In this document: positions 1,662 through 31,489 of the stretch, piece by piece | How the letters are laid out: every line of letters starts with the position of its first letter | Numbering within the stretch: position 1 is the stretch's first letter | Origin: Candidatus Helarchaeota archaeon | GTDB taxonomy: Archaea > Asgardarchaeota > Lokiarchaeia > Helarchaeales > RDOG01 | Length of the DNA: 32,000 nt | Assembly: GCA_019058315.1 (NCBI GenBank) | Contig: JAHPZH010000009.1 | Coordinates: 108,505-140,504, forward strand | Reading direction: 5' to 3' | The notes under the pieces: generated by a model | What the model saw: only the letters and a program-made list of their open reading frames with translations | Databases searched by the model: none | Told to the model about the DNA's origin: nothing | Position numbers and translations under genes: made by a program

Positions 1662-3137
1662 TTAATAACGTCCTCGTTTTTTAGATTCTGCTATTGCCTC
1701 CTCAGCTATTCTTATGGCTTTATCTTTCTCCTCTTTTGTAATTAATAGCTCTTTTTCTAGTTCTTTGTTTTCTATTTTAAGTTGTTTAATAATTAATTCA
1801 AGTTCTTGGATTTTTGCCTGAAAAGCTTTAATTTCAGTTGTTTTATCAGAATCAGTTAAAAGTAATGAATCAAAAAGTTCCTTAGCTTCTTCAATTTGAG
1901 TCCTTGATCGTCCTTCACTAAGTCGTTTTCTCCTAGCTTCCATAGTTTCTTTTAATTCGTCGCTTACAAAATCTAGGGGATTAAATCCAGAACCTCCATG
2001 TAATGTTTCTCGTATTCGGATTTTTAAAATAAGGGGGGCTCTCTTAATTACATCTCCGGTAATAATCGCCTCACCAGGTTCTAATCGGGAAATATCTTCA
2101 TTCCAATCAGATGATAATCCCTCAGAACTCTTGATTGTAATATCAATATCTCTAATATCAGTTAATTGATGAATAATCCAAGTACCAGCTTGAGCACGAA
2201 CAGTTGTATCGAGTAATTGAGGTTTTTGAGTAACAATTACTAAATTTGCACCAAATTTTCTTCCTTCTTGAGCAAGTAATTTGACTGTTTCCCTAACTTT
2301 TGTTTTTTTCTTAGACGCAAAAAGATGGGCTTCATCTAATATACAGTAAAAAGGTTGAATTTCTCCATCTACAGATGCATCATATAATTTCATTAATATT
2401 TTGTGGGTCAAAGCTTCCTGAACTTCTAAATCCAAACCGCGTAGATTTACAATTGTACATTGTTGAGATGAGATTAAATCCTTCGCTGAGCTTGTCATAA
2501 GAAATTCTATGGGTACATCTCCCCCGGGATTTATATCCAAATCCGTAAATTCAATTATTTGTTCAGCATATGATTTCGGTTCGACATGAAATTCTTTAGA
2601 ACTATCGGAATTTTCAACTTTAAGGCTCGAATATTCTCCATGACGATCAAAAATTATTACTGGAATCCCCTTTTTCAAAAATTCCTCTATAAAAACCCCA
2701 ACTGTATACGATTTTCCAGAACCACTCTTACCAGTAATAAAAACTCGTCCAAATTTGGCTAAAGGAAGTAAGACATCATATGGATATCCTCTTAATTTCC
2801 CAAAATATACTCCCTTTTCTTCTGGTGTAAATATTCCTAAAGTCTCCCTTATCAATTCTTCAGTTGCTTTATAAACGACTTCTTTAGGTTTAAATGGTGT
2901 CTTTGGTATACTACCTACAACTTCGGCAACACCATAAATAAAACTTTTTTCATTCCAAATTTCTTTAATAATTAATAAATAGAACTTCTCTCCATGCTTT
3001 GCTTGAATATAATCATTTCTTCCTATTTTTGGATTTGTAATATCAATGTTTACAGTATGAGCATATGTTTTACCCTCGATAGTTCCAATTTGTTCTAAAT
3101 TTTCAGTTTCCATTTTAAACCCTATATTGATCAACAT
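1662..3137 (-). CDS. HerA/FtsK-superfamily (DUF87-type) ATPase with a C-terminal coiled-coil extension
   Basis: 491 aa. The N-terminus looks like a HAS barrel. Walker A is GKSGSGKSYT and Walker B is CILDEAHLF. A HerA-typical block, EGRKFGANLVIVTQKPQLLDTTVRAQAGTWIIHQL, and GEAIITG....P..LKIRIRETLHGG are present. The last roughly 110 residues are heptad-like and charged (IKAFQAKIQELELIIKQLKIENKELEKELLITKEEKDKA). Confidence 0.8.
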   Translation of the reverse strand: MLINIGFKMETENLEQIGTIEGKTYAHTVNIDITNPKIGRNDYIQAKHGEKFYLLIIKEIWNEKSFIYGVAEVVGSIPKTPFKPKEVVYKATEELIRETLGIFTPEEKGVYFGKLRGYPYDVLLPLAKFGRVFITGKSGSGKSYTVGVFIEEFLKKGIPVIIFDRHGEYSSLKVENSDSSKEFHVEPKSYAEQIIEFTDLDINPGGDVPIEFLMTSSAKDLISSQQCTIVNLRGLDLEVQEALTHKILMKLYDASVDGEIQPFYCILDEAHLFASKKKTKVRETVKLLAQEGRKFGANLVIVTQKPQLLDTTVRAQAGTWIIHQLTDIRDIDITIKSSEGLSSDWNEDISRLEPGEAIITGDVIKRAPLILKIRIRETLHGGSGFNPLDFVSDELKETMEARRKRLSEGRSRTQIEEAKELFDSLLLTDSDKTTEIKAFQAKIQELELIIKQLKIENKELEKELLITKEEKDKAIRIAEEAIAESKKRGRY

Positions 3138-3409
3138 TAATATGATAAAACAGCATTAAGTATTCAGTAATCTAATATTTAAAATTTTAATGAAAGCGGA
3201 AAATGAATAAAAATAATTACAGAAATAATCTCTATTTATTTTAATAAAGAAAAATAATTGCAAAAATGAAAAAGAAATATTTAATTTTTTGGATAGAATG
3301 CCTAGATATGTAATTTTTTAAATATCGGTTTTGATATAATAGGATTGAGAACTAAAATTTAAAAAAAAGAAACATGACTAGGAAATTAAATTAAGAGGAT
3401 TTGAACGAA

Positions 3410-4033
3410 ATGGGATTTTTTAAGAAATTATTCCCCAAAAAGCAAGTAGAAAAAAGAGATCAAATTATATCTCAAATTCGGCAAAGTATGAACCAAATGA
3501 ATTTAAGATCTCGAAAATTTGCCAATCAAGCTGATTTAAATAAAGCTAAAGCAAGAAAATATATTAAAACAAACAAAGCTCTAGCAAAACAATATCTTGC
3601 AAGATATCAAAAAAGTCAAAAACTTCAAAAACGCTATGATACATATATTGCCAAATTGGAAGACAGAATTTTTGCATTAGAACAAGCCGAAGATATCAAA
3701 GCAATGACGGATGCTATGAAAGGGGCAACTGTCGCATTAAAGCAAGCCAGTGTGTTAATTAACCCACAAACAGCAATGGAACTTTCTGTGGAATCTCAAC
3801 AAGCTATGGCTGACATTGATAGAGCAGGAGAGATATTCGCCGAAGAAGAGGATTTAAATTTAGATGAAGAAGAACTGGACGCAGCCCTCGAAGAATTAGA
3901 AGCAGAGGCACTATTAGGGGAAATTGAAGAATTACCGGAAGTACCAGCCGATACTATTCGACAACCTGAAAAATCTAAAGTTAAAAAACAACTTGAAGAA
4001 TTAAGAGAATCCATTGATTCAGATATAGATTAA
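3410..4033 (+). CDS. ESCRT-III protein, Snf7 / Vps20-32-60 (CHMP4-7) class
   Basis: The track ORF 3401..4033 starts at TTG. I prefer the ATG at 3410 (MGFFKKLFPKK), which has AAGAGGA about 10 nt upstream. The sequence is Snf7-like: AKQYLARYQKSQKLQKRYDTYIAKLEDRIFALEQAEDIKAMTDAMKGATVALKQA. The tail is highly acidic (EEEDLNLDEEELDAALEELEAEALL). It is transcribed divergently from the HerA-like gene. Confidence 0.8.
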   Translation: MGFFKKLFPKKQVEKRDQIISQIRQSMNQMNLRSRKFANQADLNKAKARKYIKTNKALAKQYLARYQKSQKLQKRYDTYIAKLEDRIFALEQAEDIKAMTDAMKGATVALKQASVLINPQTAMELSVESQQAMADIDRAGEIFAEEEDLNLDEEELDAALEELEAEALLGEIEELPEVPADTIRQPEKSKVKKQLEELRESIDSDID

Positions 4034-5698: not shown

Positions 5699-8600
5699 TT
5701 ACTTAGCAAATTGCATGATATTTGTCTGATGCCCTTTATCTTTACTACTTTCAAATATTGAATTTATGTATTCTTCAGCTAATTCTAATCTTTGTTTTAA
5801 ATAATTATCTAATTCATACTTTTTTGCAATATCAATCGCAATTTGTAAATATTTTATAATTCCACCTTTTGTAACAGTAAGAATTAATTTACCATTACAT
5901 GGTTTATCCCTAATTTTATTTCTACAATTACCAGAAAGCGGAATACGCCGATAAGTTTTATTACATTTTGGACAACGATAGGATTGATTGGCAAAAGCCC
6001 GTAAATTTCCAATAATATCACGTAAAAAATGTTTTTCAATTATACGTTTAGCTGCATCTTTTACGTCAACTGCTCGAATTTTTTTTGCTATATCTAATTG
6101 AGCTTCGACTTTTTCCTTCATTGATTTTAATTTTTTATATTTAGTCTCTTTAGGCCCAAAATTGATATTTGTAGTATAATGACTGAATTTAAAACCTTCA
6201 TATTGCAAAGATGAACCACGTCTCTTATCTACAATATCAATTATATTTCGAACGTCTTTAGGACTTGGAAAATTAATAGTAGAATCATAAAATAAGAGTG
6301 GTAATTTCTCTGCTACCTCCATATTATAAACTTCATCATCAATCTCATCAGGGTTAATTGTGAGGGTGAGAATTAAAGGAGCATCCATTACCCCTCCACG
6401 AGTAGCTGGTAAATAATCGATAGAGAAATTAAGAAGTGCATCAAGAGCTAAAATAATTGCATCTTCATCACTATCACAGTTTCTCCTTTTTCCAGCATGC
6501 CAATAAGGGTGAGCAAAGAGAACATTTGATTCTGTAAATCCTATAATTCTCCCAACAACTCCTGCTGAAATATGTGGTGCTAATCCTATTACAATATGTC
6601 CTAAAAGCCCTTTAATATTTTTTAAATTGTAAAATTTCGGTAAATTGTAGACTTTTTCAAGCAAATCGTCAATGAATTTTGAAACTTTTAAAAGATACTC
6701 AGCACTGTTATAGGAGATTACAATATCTTGTACTCTTAATTCAACAATTTGGTTTTCACTAGTAAGTTCAAAACCTTTATAATCTGATGTATAACCTAAT
6801 CTTTTTAATTCTTTTAAGTCGATACCAATTTCGAATGGTTTAAAATGGGTCAAAGGGGCGTCAGTAGCATCATATCTACAAGTACCATCTCTAAATACAA
6901 AGGTATTGTTTTTAGCCCTCAATATTCCTTTTTCTAAAAGTTCAGGTGTTTTATCTTTACTTATTAAACCTATAACACATTTTACTTTTTCAGGTGCTAA
7001 TTCTTTTAATGATTTAAGTTTTTTACTTAGCAGTTTATTTAAATTTATATGTTTTTTGGTAGAGAATTTAGCTTGTGCTCCGCAACACTTACATATACCA
7101 TCATCAATTTCAATATTACATTTCGAACATATCATAACCTTTGAAGTTCGAACTTTACAACGAGGACATAGATTTTCATAAGTGATTTCATTACATTTAG
7201 TGCATTTTTTCGTAACTATATCAACAAACGGCTCTTTTCTATTGAAAGCAGCTTTAATCAGGTCTCTTTGAGTTCCGCCTGTTCTTCCTATAGGAAAAAG
7301 ACTATGAACTGGAGGATTCATTTTTCTTTCTTTGGATTTTTCAGGACGTCCCATACGTGCTCCAATATAATATGGAGCTTTAATTTTAACTTTAATATTA
7401 GAAATTGATTCTATAATCTTCAAACAATTGTCTTCTATAAGATCGGGTTGAATATCAATACTTTTATTATCTAATTGTAAGAGTTCTTTTAAAATTAATG
7501 AATTTTCAGTAAAAATAATTTTATTTTCTTTTACTTCATGTGGTATTTCAATTTTCTCGAGAATATTTTTAGCATTTTCATCATATTCATGAATTATATA
7601 ATTGGATGCAGGTCTATTTTGAGAGTTTGATTCTATTAACCAATTACGTAAAAACACGAATTCATCCTTTGATATATCATTCCAGCAATAATTATATGTC
7701 GGATGTAAAGAAATATCCAGATTTTTAGAGATTTTGATAGCTTCTTTTTGTGTAGGTTTAAAATTTAAAGGTTTTTGGATGAATTTTTCCAATTTTTCAT
7801 TATTAATATTCAACATTTTGCTTACTGAATTCAAACTAGGGAATTTTTTAGTTACAGATTTTAATTCTTCAGCCCACCATTCCTCACAATCCGCAGAAGG
7901 TAAAATAACATGATCATTTTCTAAAAATTCTCCAAAAGCAATTAGACAATCCCCTTGAGAAATAATTTCTTTAATTGATGATTTTAATTTTTTTGCTTCT
8001 TCTATTGAATTTATTCTTTTAACACTTCCATTTTTTAATTTAACAAGAGGTCCCTCTATAGAGTCTACAGGCATAACAATAGAGCCTTTTCCAGGTCTTT
8101 CAGTTATAAACTGTGTACCATTCGCAATAAAACTATCTGTCCCAATAATCATTGTAGCAGGATTTAATCCAACAGCAGCTAAACCAGTATTTCTTGATCT
8201 TCCATATCGTAATCTAAATCCTCCTTTACGAGAAGGATATGCAAGAATTGGTCGTCCTGCAATAACATCCGCTAAAAATTTTGTTTTTGGTTTTATATCC
8301 ATTTCTTTTTCTTTGACTTTTTGTTTCTGAGTAACCAATTTATCAATCCATTCCCAGCCTTCAATCTTCGACTTCGAAATTATTCGTTTTAATTTATGAG
8401 CTTTTCCTAATAATCCGTCATTAAAAACTAATACAGCACCACCTCTTACTCTATTGGTCTCTATTCGAGGAAGGTCTCTATGGCCTGTAACTTCTTCCTT
8501 TTGTGTTGGTTCTCCTGTAATTTCAATTGGAATATGTGTAGCAGCATATTTAATATCATCCGGTTTGGAAGGAAATTGAAGGCTCATAATATCCTTATAT

Positions 8601-9220
8601 AAATTAATTTCCTCTAAATAACGCTCGACTTCCCTTTCTGTGGTTTTATATCTGCTTAAATGTAAGATTTTACGAACAATATCACCAATTAAAATGGTAA
8701 GTGCTGTTTCAGTACCTCCAGCAGAACGAATTGGACCCGAGAAATAAATAGCTAAATATTCAGTTTTATCAAGATTTTGCTTAATCTTCACACTTGCAAT
8801 ACCATCGATAGGAGCTGCTGTTATTCCTTCAGTTAAGATTCCAAGTGCTGTTCTAACCGCTTGATCAGCCCTTCTTTGCTTAGTCTCTAATCCAAATTCA
8901 CCCGAAGCAATTTCTTCGGCAATTTTAAAAGCAATTTTTTCATGGTCTAATTTATTATTAATTAATTCACGAATTCTAGTTGCCACATTTTGAGGACCTA
9001 TCAATTTTTCAACTCGAGATGCCACATCAGTCGCCCAAGGGATTTCTACTGCATTTGAAGGGTCATATCCTTTACCCCTTGCCCGATTTGCGACATTATA
9101 TAATTTTTCAATTTCTGAAATTAAATTGATAAAATAATCTTTGATATTATTACTCATATTATTTTGGTTTAAATCATGCGAATTCTTGCTTTCTAGAGAA
9201 CCTTCTTCAGAAATTATCAT
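5699..9220 (-). CDS. polC: DNA polymerase II (PolD) large subunit DP2
   Basis: 1173 aa. Conserved DP2 blocks include ARGKGYDPSNAVEIPWATDVASRVEKLIGP, GPIRSAGGTETA, RYGRSRNTGLAAVG, GARMGRPEKSKERKM, multiple Cys4 zinc modules, HPYWHAGKRRNCDSDEDA and GGVMDAPL. I saw no intein-like insertion. Confidence 0.95.
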   Translation of the reverse strand: MIISEEGSLESKNSHDLNQNNMSNNIKDYFINLISEIEKLYNVANRARGKGYDPSNAVEIPWATDVASRVEKLIGPQNVATRIRELINNKLDHEKIAFKIAEEIASGEFGLETKQRRADQAVRTALGILTEGITAAPIDGIASVKIKQNLDKTEYLAIYFSGPIRSAGGTETALTILIGDIVRKILHLSRYKTTEREVERYLEEINLYKDIMSLQFPSKPDDIKYAATHIPIEITGEPTQKEEVTGHRDLPRIETNRVRGGAVLVFNDGLLGKAHKLKRIISKSKIEGWEWIDKLVTQKQKVKEKEMDIKPKTKFLADVIAGRPILAYPSRKGGFRLRYGRSRNTGLAAVGLNPATMIIGTDSFIANGTQFITERPGKGSIVMPVDSIEGPLVKLKNGSVKRINSIEEAKKLKSSIKEIISQGDCLIAFGEFLENDHVILPSADCEEWWAEELKSVTKKFPSLNSVSKMLNINNEKLEKFIQKPLNFKPTQKEAIKISKNLDISLHPTYNYCWNDISKDEFVFLRNWLIESNSQNRPASNYIIHEYDENAKNILEKIEIPHEVKENKIIFTENSLILKELLQLDNKSIDIQPDLIEDNCLKIIESISNIKVKIKAPYYIGARMGRPEKSKERKMNPPVHSLFPIGRTGGTQRDLIKAAFNRKEPFVDIVTKKCTKCNEITYENLCPRCKVRTSKVMICSKCNIEIDDGICKCCGAQAKFSTKKHINLNKLLSKKLKSLKELAPEKVKCVIGLISKDKTPELLEKGILRAKNNTFVFRDGTCRYDATDAPLTHFKPFEIGIDLKELKRLGYTSDYKGFELTSENQIVELRVQDIVISYNSAEYLLKVSKFIDDLLEKVYNLPKFYNLKNIKGLLGHIVIGLAPHISAGVVGRIIGFTESNVLFAHPYWHAGKRRNCDSDEDAIILALDALLNFSIDYLPATRGGVMDAPLILTLTINPDEIDDEVYNMEVAEKLPLLFYDSTINFPSPKDVRNIIDIVDKRRGSSLQYEGFKFSHYTTNINFGPKETKYKKLKSMKEKVEAQLDIAKKIRAVDVKDAAKRIIEKHFLRDIIGNLRAFANQSYRCPKCNKTYRRIPLSGNCRNKIRDKPCNGKLILTVTKGGIIKYLQIAIDIAKKYELDNYLKQRLELAEEYINSIFESSKDKGHQTNIMQFAK

Positions 9221-11222: not shown

Positions 11223-11804
11223 TTAGATTTTTTTTCTTATTGTTGCAAAATCTTCAGTTTCTTGCATATTCCAAGTACAAATTTCTTTCAAATTAGACTT
11301 ATTGAACATATTTTCAAATTCTTTTAATTCTAACTCCTTTTTTAAAATAGTAAAAATTGTAAAACCTCCTCTTTTACATATTCTTTTAACTTCATTTATT
11401 GACATAACGGGATCAGGAAGGTTTTGTAATAGTGTGATTGAAAAAACAGTAGAAAATATGTTTTCCCTGAAAGGTAAAAAATCCGTATCTGCACAAATTA
11501 AATGTAAGATATTATTTTCGTTCTTTTTTAAGGCAATTTTTAACATTTCTTTGGATATATCAATACCAACTAAAAAATTGGTGTGATTTTTTAATAGATT
11601 AAAAATAAGACATGTTCCACATCCTAAATCTAAAATAGCTTCTTTTTTGAATTTTTTTAACTTATTAAAAATCATTTTATATTTTAGATTTTGGATTGAT
11701 TTATATCGTTTATCATAATTTTTAGCAGTCTGATTATATTTAGAAATCATGTCTAATTTCTTTTTAATTGAATTTATTTTCCCGAAATTTAATTTATTAG
11801 TCAT
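11223..11804 (-). CDS. Class I SAM-dependent methyltransferase (Methyltransf_11-like), substrate unknown
   Basis: 193 aa. Motif I is ILDLGCGTC. The post-I and motif II/III spacing is DISKEML...ADTDFLPF....FSTVFS. Its start overlaps the stop of the upstream gene by 8 nt, so the two are operonic. Confidence 0.7.
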   Translation of the reverse strand: MTNKLNFGKINSIKKKLDMISKYNQTAKNYDKRYKSIQNLKYKMIFNKLKKFKKEAILDLGCGTCLIFNLLKNHTNFLVGIDISKEMLKIALKKNENNILHLICADTDFLPFRENIFSTVFSITLLQNLPDPVMSINEVKRICKRGGFTIFTILKKELELKEFENMFNKSNLKEICTWNMQETEDFATIRKKI

Positions 11805-12363
11805 TATCGTCTATTTCGCTCTTTGATACTAAAGATTCAATCATTTCATGAAAGTCAAATAAAAAATCATCTAATATTTTTTCACGCGTCTTCATAGTTT
11901 CCTTTTCAGATAATCTTAACAATAACGAATCATCTTTTCTTATGGAATTAATAATCATCTCAATTATCAATTCTTTAATCTTTTTAAGCCCTTCATCAGT
12001 AAATCTGTAGATTTTTTTGGTCTTCCCTCTACAATGAGCGTATTTCGTCGCTATAATGAATTTACAAATCCCATTTTTTTCCCATTTTTTCAAAATGTCC
12101 TTTACTAATCTATGAGTTATAGAAAATTTCGTATTTGGTTTATTTAATATCTTTAATACTAATTTTGCTAATTGTGAACTCGGAAAATCGTAACTATGCC
12201 ATTTAGAATTTACACCAACAACATATTCAGCGATAATCCATTCAATAATTTTTTCTTCTTCCTTTAATTTTTTAATTATCCCCAATTCTAAAGATGATTT
12301 CCTTTTCTTTATTGCTTTGACCATATAGATATTAATAATGATTTTATAATATAAGGATTTCAA
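11797..12363 (-). CDS. Hypothetical protein with a probable winged-helix domain
   Basis: 188 aa. The likelier start is the internal MVKAIKKRK at 12324. The segment SQLAKLVLKILNK...ITHRLVKDILKKWEKNGI...GKTKKIYRFTDEG reads as helix-turn-helix plus a beta wing. I recognise no family. Confidence 0.4.
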   Translation of the reverse strand: MKSLYYKIIINIYMVKAIKKRKSSLELGIIKKLKEEEKIIEWIIAEYVVGVNSKWHSYDFPSSQLAKLVLKILNKPNTKFSITHRLVKDILKKWEKNGICKFIIATKYAHCRGKTKKIYRFTDEGLKKIKELIIEMIINSIRKDDSLLLRLSEKETMKTREKILDDFLFDFHEMIESLVSKSEIDDND

Positions 12364-12441
12364 TCCTAAATGAATTTAGAATAAAAAGAAGAAAAATAAT
12401 TAATTTAACTAATTTGATAAAAATAGATAAATAATTTATAA

Positions 12442-14253
12442 TTATTTAGAAAGACTTTCTAAACTACGTTTAATAGTTTTAACCTTTGTCCATATTTCGT
12501 CCGCTAGCTTTATTTCTTCTAATTGCTCCGAAATTATTGCGGCTCTTTCTAAAAATCTCACTGCATCATTGAAATTTTCTTTATCAATAGCACCGTCAGC
12601 TTCCTCCATTACTTTTTTCCTTTCTTCTCTAAGAGTTGTTTTTTCTTCATCTGAGAGCTCTATTTTCTCTATTTTTTCTGGAGCTTCTTTGATTTCCTCT
12701 TTTTTTTCTATTTTTAATTTTTTATGAATTTCCTTTTCTAATATTAAGATTTTTTGTAATTCTTCTTCTGCCCCTTCTTCTTTAATTTCAACGAGCTGCA
12801 TTCCAATTTTTTTAGCTCTTTCGAGAGGTGCAAGAGCAACATCATACAATTTGTTTTTAATTGCTCTCTTAACTTTAATTAATTCTTCTTTTTGATCATT
12901 CTTAAGTTGGTCAATTTGTTTTTTATCAAGAATTGGCTTAACTCTGGGTAATTTTGGTTTAGCTATTGGTTTTACTTTTATAACCGGTTTGGGTTTAGGT
13001 ACTTCTTTCATTTTAATTTTAGGTTTTGCAGGTAGTTTAACTTTAGGTTTTGCTTCTTCTTTAGCAATTCGTTCGTCTTCTTCTTTTTTCATCAACATTG
13101 CAGCTCTTGTACCAAACATTGCTACTTCGGGCGATAATCCTTGAAATATACCTTTTAAAAGATTTAAATGTTGCAATGCAAGACTCTGGGAAATATTTCG
13201 TTCACCCCACCTTCTACGAATTGCATCCACCATGTATTCGGGAAAAAATGTTGGATAAGCTATATCATTTAATAAATAAATAAGATCGTTTCCATCCTTT
13301 TGTTTTATTTCTTTTATTAATTCTATTTTATTAAGCGCACTTAATTTTGCATCCAAGCTTGTTGGATTAAGGTTAAGAGTTTTAATAAGTGCTTCTTTCT
13401 CCTGATAATTCTGCCTTAAAACTGAAATTACAGAATATAAATCTGGATCTGAAAATATTATTGAACATTCTTTACTATCTTTTTCCTCTAATTTATATTT
13501 TTTAAAAAATCTTTGAACATCATTCCTATAACCACTAAATATTGCCTTTTTAACTTTCCCTTTCTTTCCAAATTGTTTAATCATATTTTTGGCAGGAACT
13601 CTCATGAAGAATACATCTTTTATTAAAAATAAGCATTCAGTCTCCGCGCTTATTTCAGTTGGGATTTTAAATTCTTTTAAGATATTAGTTTTGAAAAATG
13701 GCATTAATAATCCATCTAAATCTAATACATCTTCACCCATTCTATCACTAAGCCATTTACGTAAAACTTCTTTAATTACTGCTCCTTCAGTTAATTTTCT
13801 TAAAATTAGTACTCGAGTTGGGTTCTTGAAGATGAAAGAAAACCTTTGTTCATCAGTTAAAGATAAGAATTTTGGAATTTTTTCAAAATAACTCCTTAAA
13901 ATATCAGTAAAATTTGGCTTTTTTCGTTGTTCAACTATTTCATAAATAGTTTCAACCAGTGATTCTTCATATATACTAGGATCTTCAGTATCTTCTAATA
14001 TTAAAGCAACATAGAATTGATCTCTTCCTTCTTCTGGAAGACCTGTATAATAAGAACAAATATTTAAGCCTTCAATCATCATAGAAAGAAAACCCGCCTC
14101 GCCACCACCCATTGCATGTGTTGTAAATATTCGCAATAATTGATCTTCAGAAATTGAAATGTTGGGATATTTTCCTTCAAGAACAATTCCTATTTTGTCA
14201 TCCCATCTGACAAGGACAATTCCTCTTGGAATTTTAAAAACCTCTTTTATCAA
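12442..14253 (-). CDS. Large multidomain hypothetical protein: longin/roadblock-like N-terminus, winged-helix-like regions, Lys/Pro-rich linker, C-terminal coiled coil
   Basis: 603 aa, a long intact ORF. See the findings for the domain reasoning. The coding call is solid; the function is unknown. Confidence 0.6.
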   Translation of the reverse strand: MIKEVFKIPRGIVLVRWDDKIGIVLEGKYPNISISEDQLLRIFTTHAMGGGEAGFLSMMIEGLNICSYYTGLPEEGRDQFYVALILEDTEDPSIYEESLVETIYEIVEQRKKPNFTDILRSYFEKIPKFLSLTDEQRFSFIFKNPTRVLILRKLTEGAVIKEVLRKWLSDRMGEDVLDLDGLLMPFFKTNILKEFKIPTEISAETECLFLIKDVFFMRVPAKNMIKQFGKKGKVKKAIFSGYRNDVQRFFKKYKLEEKDSKECSIIFSDPDLYSVISVLRQNYQEKEALIKTLNLNPTSLDAKLSALNKIELIKEIKQKDGNDLIYLLNDIAYPTFFPEYMVDAIRRRWGERNISQSLALQHLNLLKGIFQGLSPEVAMFGTRAAMLMKKEEDERIAKEEAKPKVKLPAKPKIKMKEVPKPKPVIKVKPIAKPKLPRVKPILDKKQIDQLKNDQKEELIKVKRAIKNKLYDVALAPLERAKKIGMQLVEIKEEGAEEELQKILILEKEIHKKLKIEKKEEIKEAPEKIEKIELSDEEKTTLREERKKVMEEADGAIDKENFNDAVRFLERAAIISEQLEEIKLADEIWTKVKTIKRSLESLSK

Positions 14254-22441: not shown

Positions 22442-23527
22442 TTGAATAAAGAAAGTTTGGTTATTTCATTGGATAAATTAAAGAAGTATAATAAATATGG
22501 TATAGAAATTATATCTATTCTAAAATTAAGAAATAAATTTGTTCAACAATGCATCCAAGATTTTCAAATTTCTAAAACAGGGATAGTTTGGAGTTCTCTA
22601 ATAGCACCTTCATTAATAATAAGTTTAATTCTAAGCAGAGAATTCGAACAAAATGAAAAAAAGAGAATTTATGCAAATTGTCTAGTTGATTTATGCCATT
22701 TATTCTTTGCCTTAGAAGATAGAATTAGAGACCAACAAGTAACAAAACAAAATGAAATTGAAAGATATGAAAACACAAAAAGGGTTTTTAAATGCACATT
22801 TAGAAAAATTTTAAATAATTCATATTCAGAAGATCTAATTTCGGAAAAAATGAGAAATTTCTTTGAACCTTTCTTGGATAATTTAAATCGTTATGCCGAA
22901 CGGGTAGTTTATCCTAAAGATGAATCAGTTAAAGTTGAAAATCTCATTGATAGGATTGTAACTGAAAAAATTTCTGGCCTATTTACTAGCAATGACATTA
23001 TTGAAGTTCATAAAACAAAATTCGGAAATTTTTTTCGTGGTATGGGATATTTTCTCTATAAATTTTATGAGTTGAATTTTAAAAACAAAAAAGCTTACTT
23101 TGACTTATTCTTTTATATTGGAATGCTTGCACAATTGGTAGATGATTTAAGAGATTTATTTTGGCAAGATATCGAGATTGAACAGCCAAACATTGTAATG
23201 GCTTTAGTTTTGCATGAAAACTGGAATACTGAAGGACCAAAATTCATTAACCTTATAAAAAATAAAAATAATCAAAATTACAATTTAATTAACGAATTAG
23301 AAAATAACATAAAAAAAGTAAGAAAAGGAGAAATTAGTATATTTGATTTTTATGGATTGATATTTCCAAATACTTATCAATCCATAACAAAAATTGTGCA
23401 GAATATCAAAGAGAATATTAAATCTAGCCTTAAATCATTAGATATAAAAATAATTAACGCTGAAGAAATTGTCGAGATTTATGGATTTATTATTGCATAT
23501 ATTAAAAATATGATGGTAAAAAAATAA
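22442..23527 (+). CDS. Hypothetical all-helical protein, possibly a divergent isoprenoid-synthase fold
   Basis: 361 aa with a TTG start. It carries a DDxxD-like motif in the typical context (IGMLAQLVDDLRD) and a degenerate upstream motif (LFFALEDRIRD). The family is unrecognised. Confidence 0.45.
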   Translation: MNKESLVISLDKLKKYNKYGIEIISILKLRNKFVQQCIQDFQISKTGIVWSSLIAPSLIISLILSREFEQNEKKRIYANCLVDLCHLFFALEDRIRDQQVTKQNEIERYENTKRVFKCTFRKILNNSYSEDLISEKMRNFFEPFLDNLNRYAERVVYPKDESVKVENLIDRIVTEKISGLFTSNDIIEVHKTKFGNFFRGMGYFLYKFYELNFKNKKAYFDLFFYIGMLAQLVDDLRDLFWQDIEIEQPNIVMALVLHENWNTEGPKFINLIKNKNNQNYNLINELENNIKKVRKGEISIFDFYGLIFPNTYQSITKIVQNIKENIKSSLKSLDIKIINAEEIVEIYGFIIAYIKNMMVKK

Positions 23528-29102: not shown

Positions 29103-29915
29103 TTAGGGTAGGTATTGAAATAATTCTTTCGATTTTTCTAATGTAATCTCAACACATTTTATAATTTCGTCTTTAGTAAAAATACCTTCTCTACCTTTTT
29201 GTATGCTACAAATATTTCCAGATTCATCTACTGTAATTGTAATGCGTGCATCCATTATGCGATCCTCTTGTTCATTTGGATCAACCAGCAATTTATCTCC
29301 TATCTTTGCTATTGTAACTGAAACTGCTTTATTGGAAAATGGGAGGGATAACCAATCTGCTTTTTTGTATTGTTCACCTAAAACTTCCACTTTATTATCA
29401 ACAATCTCAGTCCTTGGCATTTTTGCAGAAAGTAAAGCTGCCACTCCTGCTAATGTTCCCGCATCAAACATATTTCCATCATAAGATAAAACATATAAAT
29501 CAATAAAAATGATAAAAACTTGTTCGCCAGGAATTAAGCATAATTTAGAATAATCTACTATTTCTGAATGACGAATTCCTCTGTCAACTACACGTGCAAC
29601 CTCAACAGAATCTTCATTTGGTGGTCCTGGTTCGAATATAGGGGATGCAAGAGCTGTAAGCTCGGCATTAACAGTGATTACTCCCCTATCAGGAGTATCT
29701 GGAAATGGAGGTCCAAGTGAAATCTTTACACCTGCAATAATATCTGTATTTCCAATTTTAACACGTGCTGACCCCTCAGCTTTTAGTATTACATCTGTCT
29801 CTACAGATATTTTTCGATAATCTAAAAAATTCCTTCCGTCTATTCTCTGATCCTTTTTTACTAGAGAATTTATATGAGATTTTTCAATTTCAGAAATAAT
29901 TTTAAAAGATTCCAT
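29103..29915 (-). CDS. rrp42: Exosome complex component Rrp42 (RNase PH-like, non-catalytic)
   Basis: 270 aa. The sequence is R.DGR....YR....ET.V...A.GSARVK.GNT. Its position is directly downstream of rrp41, with a TAATG stop/start overlap. Confidence 0.9.
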   Translation of the reverse strand: MESFKIISEIEKSHINSLVKKDQRIDGRNFLDYRKISVETDVILKAEGSARVKIGNTDIIAGVKISLGPPFPDTPDRGVITVNAELTALASPIFEPGPPNEDSVEVARVVDRGIRHSEIVDYSKLCLIPGEQVFIIFIDLYVLSYDGNMFDAGTLAGVAALLSAKMPRTEIVDNKVEVLGEQYKKADWLSLPFSNKAVSVTIAKIGDKLLVDPNEQEDRIMDARITITVDESGNICSIQKGREGIFTKDEIIKCVEITLEKSKELFQYLP

Positions 29916-30738
29916 TATATATCCTCCTCCTTTGATATTTCAGTTTCAATTTCTTTATCAAGTTGACTATATTTTCCCTTTATCGTCTGAATTTGAATTT
30001 CATTTAATTTTTCAATTCCTTTTTCAGCAATATCCAAGGCTTTACGCATTTCATCAAATGTTATTTGACCATCAAATTGCAAAAGTGTATATGATTTAGA
30101 TCGTGGCATCATTGCAATTGGTAAATCTCCCAAACCTTCTTTATCTTCAACATCCGATAAATCTAGAACTAATGTGGGTGGATCAGGATTTGCAATTTTA
30201 CCTACTGCTACACCACAAACAAGGTCGCGTAATGATATTCCAGCATCCGCTAGAGCTAAAGAAGCCGCAGTAACCGCAGCACAACGTGTACCACCATCTG
30301 CACAAAGGACTTGGATAAAAACATCTATTATAGTTTTTGGATAATATTCAAGAAATATTGATGATTCCAAAGCTTGTCGTAAAATTAGCGAAAGTTCGAC
30401 TTCCCTTCTAGATGGGGCAGGAGATTTTCTCTCATCTACTTTATTCCAAATTATTCACTCGGTATAATTTAAGCGAACGTAGCCATGCGATAAAGTACTC
30501 GCAAAACTGCCGCATCTTGACGGGCTAAATGACGAGGGTGAACTTCACGTGGTCCATAAACTGCGACCAAAATTTTATTCTTTCCCATATTTATTAAAGC
30601 AGAACCATCTGCTTTTGTTAATAATCCCATCTCCATTGAGACTGGTCTTAATTCATCATATTTCCTATTATCTGTTCTTATTCCATCCCTAATTAACCAA
30701 TCAGCTGGGACTTGTTTAAAAAGTGCCATAATTATCAC
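29915..30738 (-). CDS. rrp41: Exosome complex exonuclease Rrp41 (RNase PH-like), interrupted; predicted structure is join of 30738..30473 and 30440..29915 on the minus strand (263 aa)
   Basis: The track shows two ORFs, 30469..30738 and 29915..30370, in different frames. The first ends ...LRVLYRMATFA*. Extending the second frame upstream gives VDERKSPAPSRREVELSLILRQALESSIFLEYYPKTIIDVF...ADGGTR. Together they are colinear with Rrp41 (compare Sulfolobus ...[30 protein letters not shown]...). Removing 32 nt (30441..30472) joins them in frame. Confidence 0.85.
30441..30472 (-). other. Predicted 32-nt BHB intron within the rrp41 coding sequence
   Basis: The region forms an hBHBh' motif on the minus-strand RNA.
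- Outer helix: CUAC (30482-30479) / GUAG (30439-30436).
- Central 4-bp helix: GUUC (30478-30475) / GAAU (30446-30443).
- 3-nt bulges: GCU (30474-30472) and AAA (30442-30440).
- Inner helix: UAAAUUAU (30471-30464) / AUAAUUUG (30454-30447).
- 9-nt loop: ACCGAGUGA. Confidence 0.7.
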
Positions 30739-30784
30739 CTTTTTATATATTTTTTTAATTCATATCTAAATTTCGATTTTCAAT

Positions 30785-31489
30785 TTACTTCTTCTTTTTT
30801 TCATTCTCTATCAAAATTTTTACTCTATCTGTGAGGCCAGAAGTATGTGCCTCTCGTTCAATTTTCTTAATAATTTTAATCAATAATTGTTCATCTTCTA
30901 AGTTTTTTGTAGATATCCAAACCAAACCATTTTGTCCAACTACGATTTGGCTTTTTGTTGCTTCTTTAATTAAATTTATCATAGAACCCTTTCTTCCTAT
31001 CAATCTAGGTATTTTCGCAGAAGCAATTTTTATTACTTTTCCTCCGCGCAATTTACCATATCCTTTACCTCTTATTGATAGAACAGGATCTCTTGTTCTG
31101 TTAAATGCTATTATCTCCCCCACAATAATTTGTCCGATATCAAAATAATTTTTGATATTATCTTTTAAAGGATTAAATGCTCGGTCTATTACATTTGTAA
31201 CATGTAAGGAAGCTGTATATGGAGAATCAATATCAACTTTCCAGCTAACGATGGATGTATTTATAATTTTTCCTATAACAACATCACCGACCTTAGGTAC
31301 ATAAGGTCCACTGAAGGGAACTACATATACATTATTATTTCCTCTAATCTCTGAAAACCCAATAATAGATGCATAAAGTTTATCCTCTTCCTTGTATGTT
31401 CCAAATCCTGCTCTATACTTAGAACCTTCTACAATTAATTCGCCTGGCACTACAATACGATGCCGTTCAAAACTATCTCCATTTGACAA
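30785..31489 (-). CDS. rrp4: Exosome RNA-binding subunit Rrp4 (S1 + KH domains)
   Basis: 234 aa. The N-terminal VVPGE is followed by an S1 segment (P.VGDVVIGKI......W.VDI) and a KH segment (IPRLIGRKGSMI..I.......I.VGQNG.VWI). Confidence 0.9.
   Translation of the reverse strand: MSNGDSFERHRIVVPGELIVEGSKYRAGFGTYKEEDKLYASIIGFSEIRGNNNVYVVPFSGPYVPKVGDVVIGKIINTSIVSWKVDIDSPYTASLHVTNVIDRAFNPLKDNIKNYFDIGQIIVGEIIAFNRTRDPVLSIRGKGYGKLRGGKVIKIASAKIPRLIGRKGSMINLIKEATKSQIVVGQNGLVWISTKNLEDEQLLIKIIKKIEREAHTSGLTDRVKILIENEKKKK

Follow-up and report, generated by a model that had tools for sequence, protein, structure and literature searches.

Removal of introns from messenger RNA (mRNA) by the tRNA-splicing endonuclease EndA has been described for only two archaeal genes: cbf5 of Crenarchaeota, in which the coding sequence is interrupted, and HVO_1309 of Haloferax, in which the intron lies in the 5' untranslated region (UTR) (PMC7714728, PMC10485636; reviews to 2023). 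At least two archaeal genes are spliced by this route, and more are probably undiscovered (PMC10485636). Here, we describe a 32-nucleotide (nt) element in rrp41 of a Candidatus Helarchaeota archaeon, which is very probably a genuine bulge-helix-bulge (BHB) intron, spliced by EndA and an RtcB-type ligase. In the following, 'the window' refers to the whole stretch of DNA that was analysed, 32,000 nt of contig JAHPZH010000009.1, and positions are counted from its first letter. The intron had been proposed in a first-pass annotation of the window, which was not aware of any precedent; in the searchable literature, neither an rrp41 intron nor a BHB intron in any protein-coding gene of Asgard archaea turned up.

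The cbf5 intron, which is found in Desulfurococcales and Sulfolobales (Watanabe 2002; Yokobori 2009; PMC2738675), has much in common with the rrp41 element. Both are short BHB introns in the coding sequence of an RNA-processing enzyme, with cuts, in rrp41 predicted ones, between bulge nucleotides 2 and 3. Both are confined to a single clade, consistent with one gain, and both vary in internal sequence while keeping the pairing with their exons. The hosts of cbf5 introns have a hetero-oligomeric (alpha-beta)2 EndA, and Asgard archaea likewise encode an (alpha-beta)2 EndA, with an L1 loop (PMC5829648). The two introns are nevertheless not homologous, as they lie in different genes and in different phyla, one in Asgard archaea (Helarchaeota) and the other in Crenarchaeota. 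Moreover, the BHB of most cbf5 introns is unconventional and relaxed, whereas the rrp41 motif is a strict 3-4-3 hBHBh', for which no relaxed EndA specificity is needed; and while cbf5 splicing is backed by cDNA and in vitro cleavage, the rrp41 intron is predicted from sequence. The HVO_1309 intron of Haloferax volcanii (Schwarz 2020; PMC7714728) likewise shows the archaeal splicing endonuclease acting on an mRNA, besides its tRNA and rRNA substrates. It differs in lying in a 5' UTR, where it interrupts no reading frame, in its euryarchaeal host, and in being backed by in vivo and in vitro evidence.

For the introns of archaeal tRNAs at position 37/38, Marck and Grosjean reportedly described the hBHBh' motif in 2003. 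These introns share with the rrp41 element a flanking helix, a 4-bp helix between exon and intron, a 3-nt bulge on each strand, a cut after the second bulge nucleotide and a similar size range. In rrp41, by contrast, the motif sits in an mRNA with no tRNA-like body around it, and its outer helix consists of codons (Ala-Thr and Val-Asp) where a tRNA has its anticodon stem; Rfam and tRNA scans of the window gave no match. Lastly, in eukaryotes, IRE1 and an RtcB-type ligase remove from the mRNAs of XBP1 and HAC1 an intron that is very short (in XBP1, 26 nt), which changes their reading frame. This likeness is one of mechanism only, a protein endonuclease and an RtcB-type ligase acting on an mRNA: IRE1 recognises paired stem-loops, is unrelated to EndA and serves a regulated stress response.

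On the minus strand of the window, rrp41 (29915..30729) is split into two open reading frames (ORFs) that lie in different frames, as the first-pass annotation had observed, with stops in all three frames across the break. The ORF of exon 1 ends in ...YRMATFA, followed by TAA, and the continuation VDERKSPAPSRRE... begins 32 nt on in another frame. Deleting these 32 nt in silico yields a protein of 260 amino acids (aa), in which the junction ...ACG UUC GC·A GUA GAU... (the dot marks the joint) reads MATF-A-VDERK. Over residues 11-248, this protein aligns with Sulfolobus solfataricus Rrp41 (2br2_B, E = 2.8e-77). The alignment is ungapped across the junction (...vlrvlyrmatfavderkspapsrre...), and its single 4-residue gap lies far from it. 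The junction peptide TFAVDERK is identical in the nearest uninterrupted genes (L001 and P0001), so that both the predicted excision and the predicted junction stand. We assign the gene to Rrp41 by its full-length similarity to a solved structure and by its place in an rrp4-rrp41-rrp42 operon; the Pfam domains PF01138 (RNase_PH) and PF03725 (RNase_PH_C) are precomputed on its homologues.

Some of the lengths given at first need adjustment. The gene has an ATG at 30729, preceded by GGTGA, and its relatives start at MALF; the GTG at 30738, the start taken by the program that listed the ORFs, is probably not the true start. The 263 aa once given for the spliced protein assumed this GTG and become 260 aa from the ATG, from which the unspliced product, formerly put at 89 aa, comes to 86 aa. 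Likewise, it is not quite right that an insert of 32 nt was needed, because an excised intron can be of any length; in relatives, it measures 28, 29 or 31 nt.

The RNA of the minus strand can form a complete hBHBh' motif around the break, at exactly the coordinates and with the geometry that had been predicted (Table 1). Each 3-nt bulge lies 3' of its strand of the central helix, and the two bulges are on opposite strands, four base pairs apart; by our own derivation, this geometry matches that of the canonical tRNA intron at 37/38. Two opposite 3-nt bulges and a 4-bp central helix, which define a strict BHB, are present in the window and in all of its intron-bearing relatives described below (nine of nine sequences). 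The flanking helices h and h' are present as well, the outer one with 4 bp in all nine and the inner one with 8 bp in the window; in the relatives, the inner helix has 6-9 pairs, interrupted by 1-2 mismatches in L008, L009 and L017. As the cleavage rule, we applied a cut between bulge nucleotides 2 and 3, which is stated for cbf5 introns (PMC2738675) and agrees with the rule that the first-pass annotation had applied. Cutting and joining in silico by this rule yields Rrp41 with the ancestral junction peptide.

Table 1. Coordinates of the predicted rrp41 intron, its structural elements and the adjoining genes in the window (dots in sequences mark predicted cuts)
Feature	Position	Strand	Remarks
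Complete hBHBh' motif, predicted splicing-endonuclease substrate	30436..30482	-	16 of 16 pairs standard
Outer helix h, 5' arm CUAC (exon 1)	30479..30482	-	Pairs with 30436-30439; invariant in 9/9, including the four-fold third base of Ala83 GCU
Central helix H, 5' strand GUUC (exon 1), 4 bp	30475..30478	-	Pairs with 30443-30446; paired in all sequences
5' bulge GC·U	30472..30474	-	Predicted 5' cut between 30473 and 30472
Inner helix h', 5' arm UAAAUUAU, 8 bp	30464..30471	-	Both-sided changes in 7 of 8 pairs among relatives
Terminal loop ACCGAGUGA, 9 nt	30455..30463	-	Length and sequence free in relatives, unpaired stretch 3-9 nt
Inner helix h', 3' arm AUAAUUUG	30447..30454	-	Pairs with UAAAUUAU
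Central helix H, 3' strand GAAU (intron)	30443..30446	-	GAAU in 7, GAAC in 2; complementary to the exon strand throughout
3' bulge AA·A	30440..30442	-	Predicted 3' cut between 30441 and 30440; third A invariant, third base of Ala86
Outer helix h, 3' arm GUAG (exon 2)	30436..30439	-	Val87 and first base of Asp88; invariant in 9/9, including the four-fold third base of GUA
rrp41 exon 1	30473..30729	-	ATG 30729-30727, 85 codons and GC of Ala86; matches residues 12-97 of S. solfataricus Rrp41
Predicted BHB intron, 32 nt, 5'-UUAAAUUAUACCGAGUGAAUAAUUUGGAAUAA-3'	30441..30472	-	Removal restores Rrp41; 28-32 nt at the same nucleotide in relatives
rrp41 exon 2	29915..30440	-	Third base of Ala86, 174 codons, stop
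GGTGA, Shine-Dalgarno-like motif	30735..30739	-	Upstream of the rrp41 ATG; read from the sequence, putative role
rrp4	30785..31489	-	Upstream of rrp41; Pfam ECR1_N, RRP4_S1, KH_6; order same in all relatives
rrp42	29103..29915	-	Downstream, intact; Pfam RNase_PH, RNase_PH_C; homologues named Rrp42 of Helarchaeota

We propose that these 32 nt are a BHB intron of the rrp41 pre-mRNA. The end of exon 1 (CUAC-GUUC-GC) would pair with GAAU, at the 3' end of the intron, and with GUAG, the first bases of the outer helix in exon 2, while a hairpin within the intron would close the other side, leaving the two bulges exposed four base pairs apart. EndA would then cut after the second nucleotide of each bulge, i.e. 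after C30473 and after A30441, and an RtcB-type ligase would join ...UUCGC to AGUAGAU..., restoring the Ala86 codon GCA and the 260-aa frame. The predicted junction in the spliced mRNA is ACGUUCGC followed by AGUAGAUGAG (with a longer left flank, GGCUACGUUCGC followed by AGUAGAUGAG), and the excised intron would read UUAAAUUAU...GGAAUAA. Unspliced RNA would give only the 86-aa N-terminal fragment.

We regard the structure kept and compensated among relatives, which by these comparisons goes far beyond chance, as the decisive evidence. Protein searches retrieved truncated Rrp41 fragments at 81-100% identity to those of the window, and the respective contigs were then compared. The split occurs in assemblies from eight samples (three from JGI, three from ENA and two from Logan); the source environments include the site of SRR14802573 and those of JGI 3300033141, 3300033150 and 3300056903. 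Over 5086 nt, L012, a Logan assembly of SRR14802573, matches the window with 100% identity, so the 32 nt are not an assembly artefact of the metagenome-assembled genome (MAG). Such a comparison of rrp41 loci had been suggested from the start as a check on the intron. It gave nine distinct intron sequences, that of the window included here and in all comparisons of nine, which lie between the same two nucleotides, show compensatory changes and measure 32, 32, 32, 31, 28, 28, 29, 29 and 28 nt. Their inner-helix sequences are unrelated (UAAAUUAU..., UAAGUUAU..., UGAGCUAU..., CGCUAUCU..., CGGCAAA...), and the hBHBh' motif forms in each of them.

The pairing can be expressed in numbers. In a plain MAFFT alignment of the nine sequences, 97.2% of the pair positions are paired, compared to 82.9 +/- 2.1% in shuffles, of which none of 500 reaches the observed value; sliding one strand by 1-3 columns lowers the value to 31-41%. 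The picture is the same when an anchored alignment is considered together with the MAFFT alignment (97.2-97.8% paired, 27-44% in the slid controls). Nor is the observed covariation score reached by any of 500 shuffles. In the inner helix, seven of eight pairs are altered on both sides in a compensatory manner, and in the central helix, the first pair is G-U in five sequences, A-U in two and G-C in two, while the fourth is C-G in eight and U-G in one. The unconstrained minimum free energy (MFE) fold of L014 is exactly the BHB; in those of L015 and L008, both bulges and the central and inner helices are present, but the outer helix is displaced by one position.

A separate signal comes from the exon arms of the motif. 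Among 56 four-fold degenerate columns with an invariant amino acid, the third base is invariant in six, and these comprise three of the four sites inside the BHB arms, compared to three of 52 elsewhere in the gene (hypergeometric p ~0.003, not corrected for phylogeny). The fourth site in the arms is always G or A, both of which keep the pair.

The fate of unspliced transcripts can be read from the same alignment. In the window as well as in L014, L015, L032 and L033 (five of nine), a stop (UAA or UGA) begins at intron nucleotide 2 in the frame of exon 1, so that unspliced mRNA would terminate right after Ala86. The exon 1 frame continues for another 8-10 codons in the other four introns, and no intron among the nine has a length divisible by three.

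Several observations weigh against this reading of the window. The fold of its 71-nt region has a z-score of -0.24, no better than shuffled sequence, and at -5.3 to -5.5 kcal/mol the BHB is not the minimum-energy structure, which has -7.0 to -10.1 kcal/mol. When scanned for loose BHB-like motifs, defined by outer and inner helices of 4 bp or more with G-U pairs permitted, the window yields 100, compared to 113 +/- 11 in first-order Markov simulations. RNAalifold predicts the outer and inner helices, with seven compensatory pairs, but leaves the central 4 bp open. The outer helix is invariant and, by our derivation by hand, codon positions 1 and 2 already determine three of its four pairs, which is why it contributes nothing in terms of covariation. 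Furthermore, genes for EndA and RtcB were not found in the 32-kb window, splicing, cut sites and ligation are all steps that we infer, and a second, intact rrp41 may lie outside the window.

Given the z-score and the energetically more favourable alternative folds, we do not rely on folding energy. A BHB motif is by itself weak evidence, as its frequency is at chance level in this AT-rich window (29.5% GC); if the inner helix is required to have 8 bp or more, there are two motifs where 3.1 are expected. The improbable part is the placement: cutting would repair the gene at no more than a handful of site pairs, and at one specified pair, a motif of this kind is expected with a probability of about 5e-7. 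The only other strong match of the scan lies at 7722..7772 on the plus strand (outer helix 8 bp, inner helix 9 bp, 'intron' 45 nt), antisense to the uninterrupted ORF of PolD DP2 (5699..9220, minus strand). It is probably a chance motif, because motifs of that strength occur at the chance rate.

Both exons appear to be maintained by selection. Across the eight complete spliced genes, the pairwise dN/dS (Nei-Gojobori) is about 0.12 for each exon at a mean pS of 0.49 in exon 1 and 0.66 in exon 2, and rrp41 carries no further disruptions. These values indicate that both exons are under strong purifying selection, i.e. that the gene is functional.

Among the explanations that do without splicing, the one that fares best, improbable as we consider it, is a cleavage or decay switch, in which EndA would cut the BHB of the rrp4-rrp41-rrp42 transcript while the exons would be poorly rejoined. 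There is precedent in yeast, where TSEN cuts some mRNAs for decay and not for splicing (PMC10485636), and the ligation step is here only deduced. However, exon 2 is under strong purifying selection in precisely the frame that would arise by ligation, in most relatives it lacks a start from which it could be translated separately, and joining at the cut sites restores the ancestral peptide exactly.

Still less probable is a true split gene, whose polypeptides of ~86 and ~175 aa would be translated separately and would assemble into a functional subunit. It would fit the two ORFs called in every relative, the purifying selection on both halves, and a TTG that lies inside the insert in frame with exon 2 in L008, L009 and L011. 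In five of the nine sequences, including the window, however, the frame of exon 2 contains no ATG, GTG or TTG between the upstream stop and Val87, and the first downstream start lies 18-70 codons in, so that the conserved DERKSPAPSRRE segment would be lost. Moreover, a split gene leaves the BHB geometry, the covariation and the synonymous constraint in the exon arms unexplained.

We give hardly any credence to programmed ribosomal frameshifting, or to translational bypassing as in gene 60 of phage T4, which would join the two frames without RNA splicing. For frameshifting, the geometry would permit a shift in the five of nine sequences in which the frames overlap; in the other four, the window among them, the frame of exon 1 closes before that of exon 2 opens, which leaves no path. 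Besides, the insert length modulo three is 2 in five sequences and 1 in four, so the required shift would differ between them, and frameshifting would add some 10 residues to a segment that is ungapped in every homologue. For bypassing, the TAA directly after the last sense codon and the hairpin that follows it in the window resemble the gene 60 take-off site, but the triplet before GUA is AAA, AUA or AGA and does not match the take-off codon, GCU or GCA. Neither process explains the covariation, or why there are two 3-nt bulges at a distance of four base pairs.

That the locus is a decaying pseudogene, or an error of sequencing or assembly, while a functional rrp41 lies elsewhere, is just as improbable: although the analysis covers 32 kb of the host genome and NCBI gives neither fragment a protein name, the identical sequence recurs in an independent assembly, the same interruption occurs in nine diverged lineages from eight samples, dN/dS stays at ~0.12 on both sides despite heavy synonymous divergence, the gene has no other disruptions and keeps its operon position between rrp4 and rrp42, and no full-length Rrp41 of more than 69% identity is among the matches listed from a search of 5.8 billion proteins.

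Turning to the distribution of the predicted intron, the eight Rrp41 proteins with the interruption form one clade in a neighbour-joining tree. Their sister is an intronless Helarchaeota pair, P0001 and L001, which has TFAVDERK. A single gain is the simplest reading of such a clade, and the tree suggests that the intron was gained once. The intronless relatives already hold a potential outer helix, since the first two codon positions of the peptide [A/S]-T-F-A-V-[D/E] necessarily read C.AC...GU.G; in the Helarchaeota genes L001 (3237..3275) and L013 (3237..3281), the arms are CUAC/GUGG and CCAC/GUGG, respectively. To us, the insertion site thus looks pre-adapted for the outer helix of a BHB.

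Wider scans did not extend this distribution. A scan of GTDB genomes yielded intronless relatives only, and an exon-anchored DNA pattern of the motif had no match in metagenomes, although it fits the known loci. A protein-based scan of metagenomes gave matches at 55-58% identity only, a level similar to that of uninterrupted Bathyarchaeia genes. P0132 (Helarchaeales, 94 aa), a candidate split gene, was rejected, as it is cut by its contig end and has no intron, and the truncated fragments P0147, P0152, P0141, P0140, P0138 and P0151 end at other positions. One further fragment from another lineage, P0144 (NCBI, on a 3258-nt contig), is 62% identical to exon 1 and departs right after ...YYRMATF into the +1 frame of its downstream sequence (FMNEQALHQIEE...). 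This looks like a 1-nt indel at the codon where the intron of the window sits.

In the window, rrp41 is part of a minus-strand exosome operon with SBDS, rrp4, rrp42, L37ae, Pcc1 and prefoldin, and it lies between rrp4 and rrp42 on the contig of every relative. Its stop overlaps the start of rrp42 (TAATG, 29915..29917), which suggests that translation of rrp42 is coupled to ribosomes that read exon 2 in the spliced frame. In L014 (2157..2999) and L016 (660..1502), rrp4 is called with 280 aa, compared to 233-252 aa in the others, and ends 1-2 nt before the start of rrp41.

The host had been taken for an Asgard archaeon, and the genes around rrp41 bear this out. Clade members of Rrp42 are named Candidatus Helarchaeota or Promethearchaeota in NCBI, and the Rrp42 proteins encoded next to rrp41 share at least 70% identity inside the clade and 62% outside. 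Three further clade members, P0161 (87%), P0162 and P0163, are represented by their Rrp42 only. Besides PolD and other informational genes of archaeal type, the window carries three Snf7/ESCRT-III paralogues (208-825, 842-1459 and 3401-4033), which flank a HerA/DUF87-like ATPase (1662-3137), an ESCRT neighbourhood of Asgard type. Three ORFs of 188, 603 and 361 aa (11797..14253, minus strand; 22442..23527, plus strand) have no Pfam match at E <= 1e-5. Some Asgard genomes are rich in tRNA introns (PMC11291895).

An rrp41 intron would have practical consequences for the study of these organisms. The fragments are either unnamed, as in NCBI, or annotated as an 86-aa RRP41, as in one JGI case, so that estimates of MAG completeness and metabolic inferences would wrongly score Rrp41 as missing or broken. 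At the same time, the locus offers a defined case of intron gain, in which the codons at the site already encode the outer helix and intronless sister lineages are available for comparison, and its strict BHB is a simple substrate on which the action of Asgard EndA and RtcB on mRNA can be tested. It is conceivable, if rather doubtful, that EndA and RtcB splice several coding genes of this Helarchaeota lineage, and perhaps of other Asgard archaea, that are now called frameshifted pseudogenes, and that the rrp41 intron, as a regulated splicing step in an RNA-decay gene, couples exosome synthesis to tRNA-splicing activity; the one pointer in this direction is that the intron has been kept throughout a deep clade. 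The first-pass annotation had suggested that splicing could gate exosome production, which is pure speculation.

Asgard archaea are the closest known relatives of eukaryotes, and the gene interrupted here encodes the catalytic subunit of the RNA-degrading exosome. If its splicing is confirmed, the rrp41 intron would be the second BHB intron known in a coding sequence in Archaea and the first in Asgard archaea.

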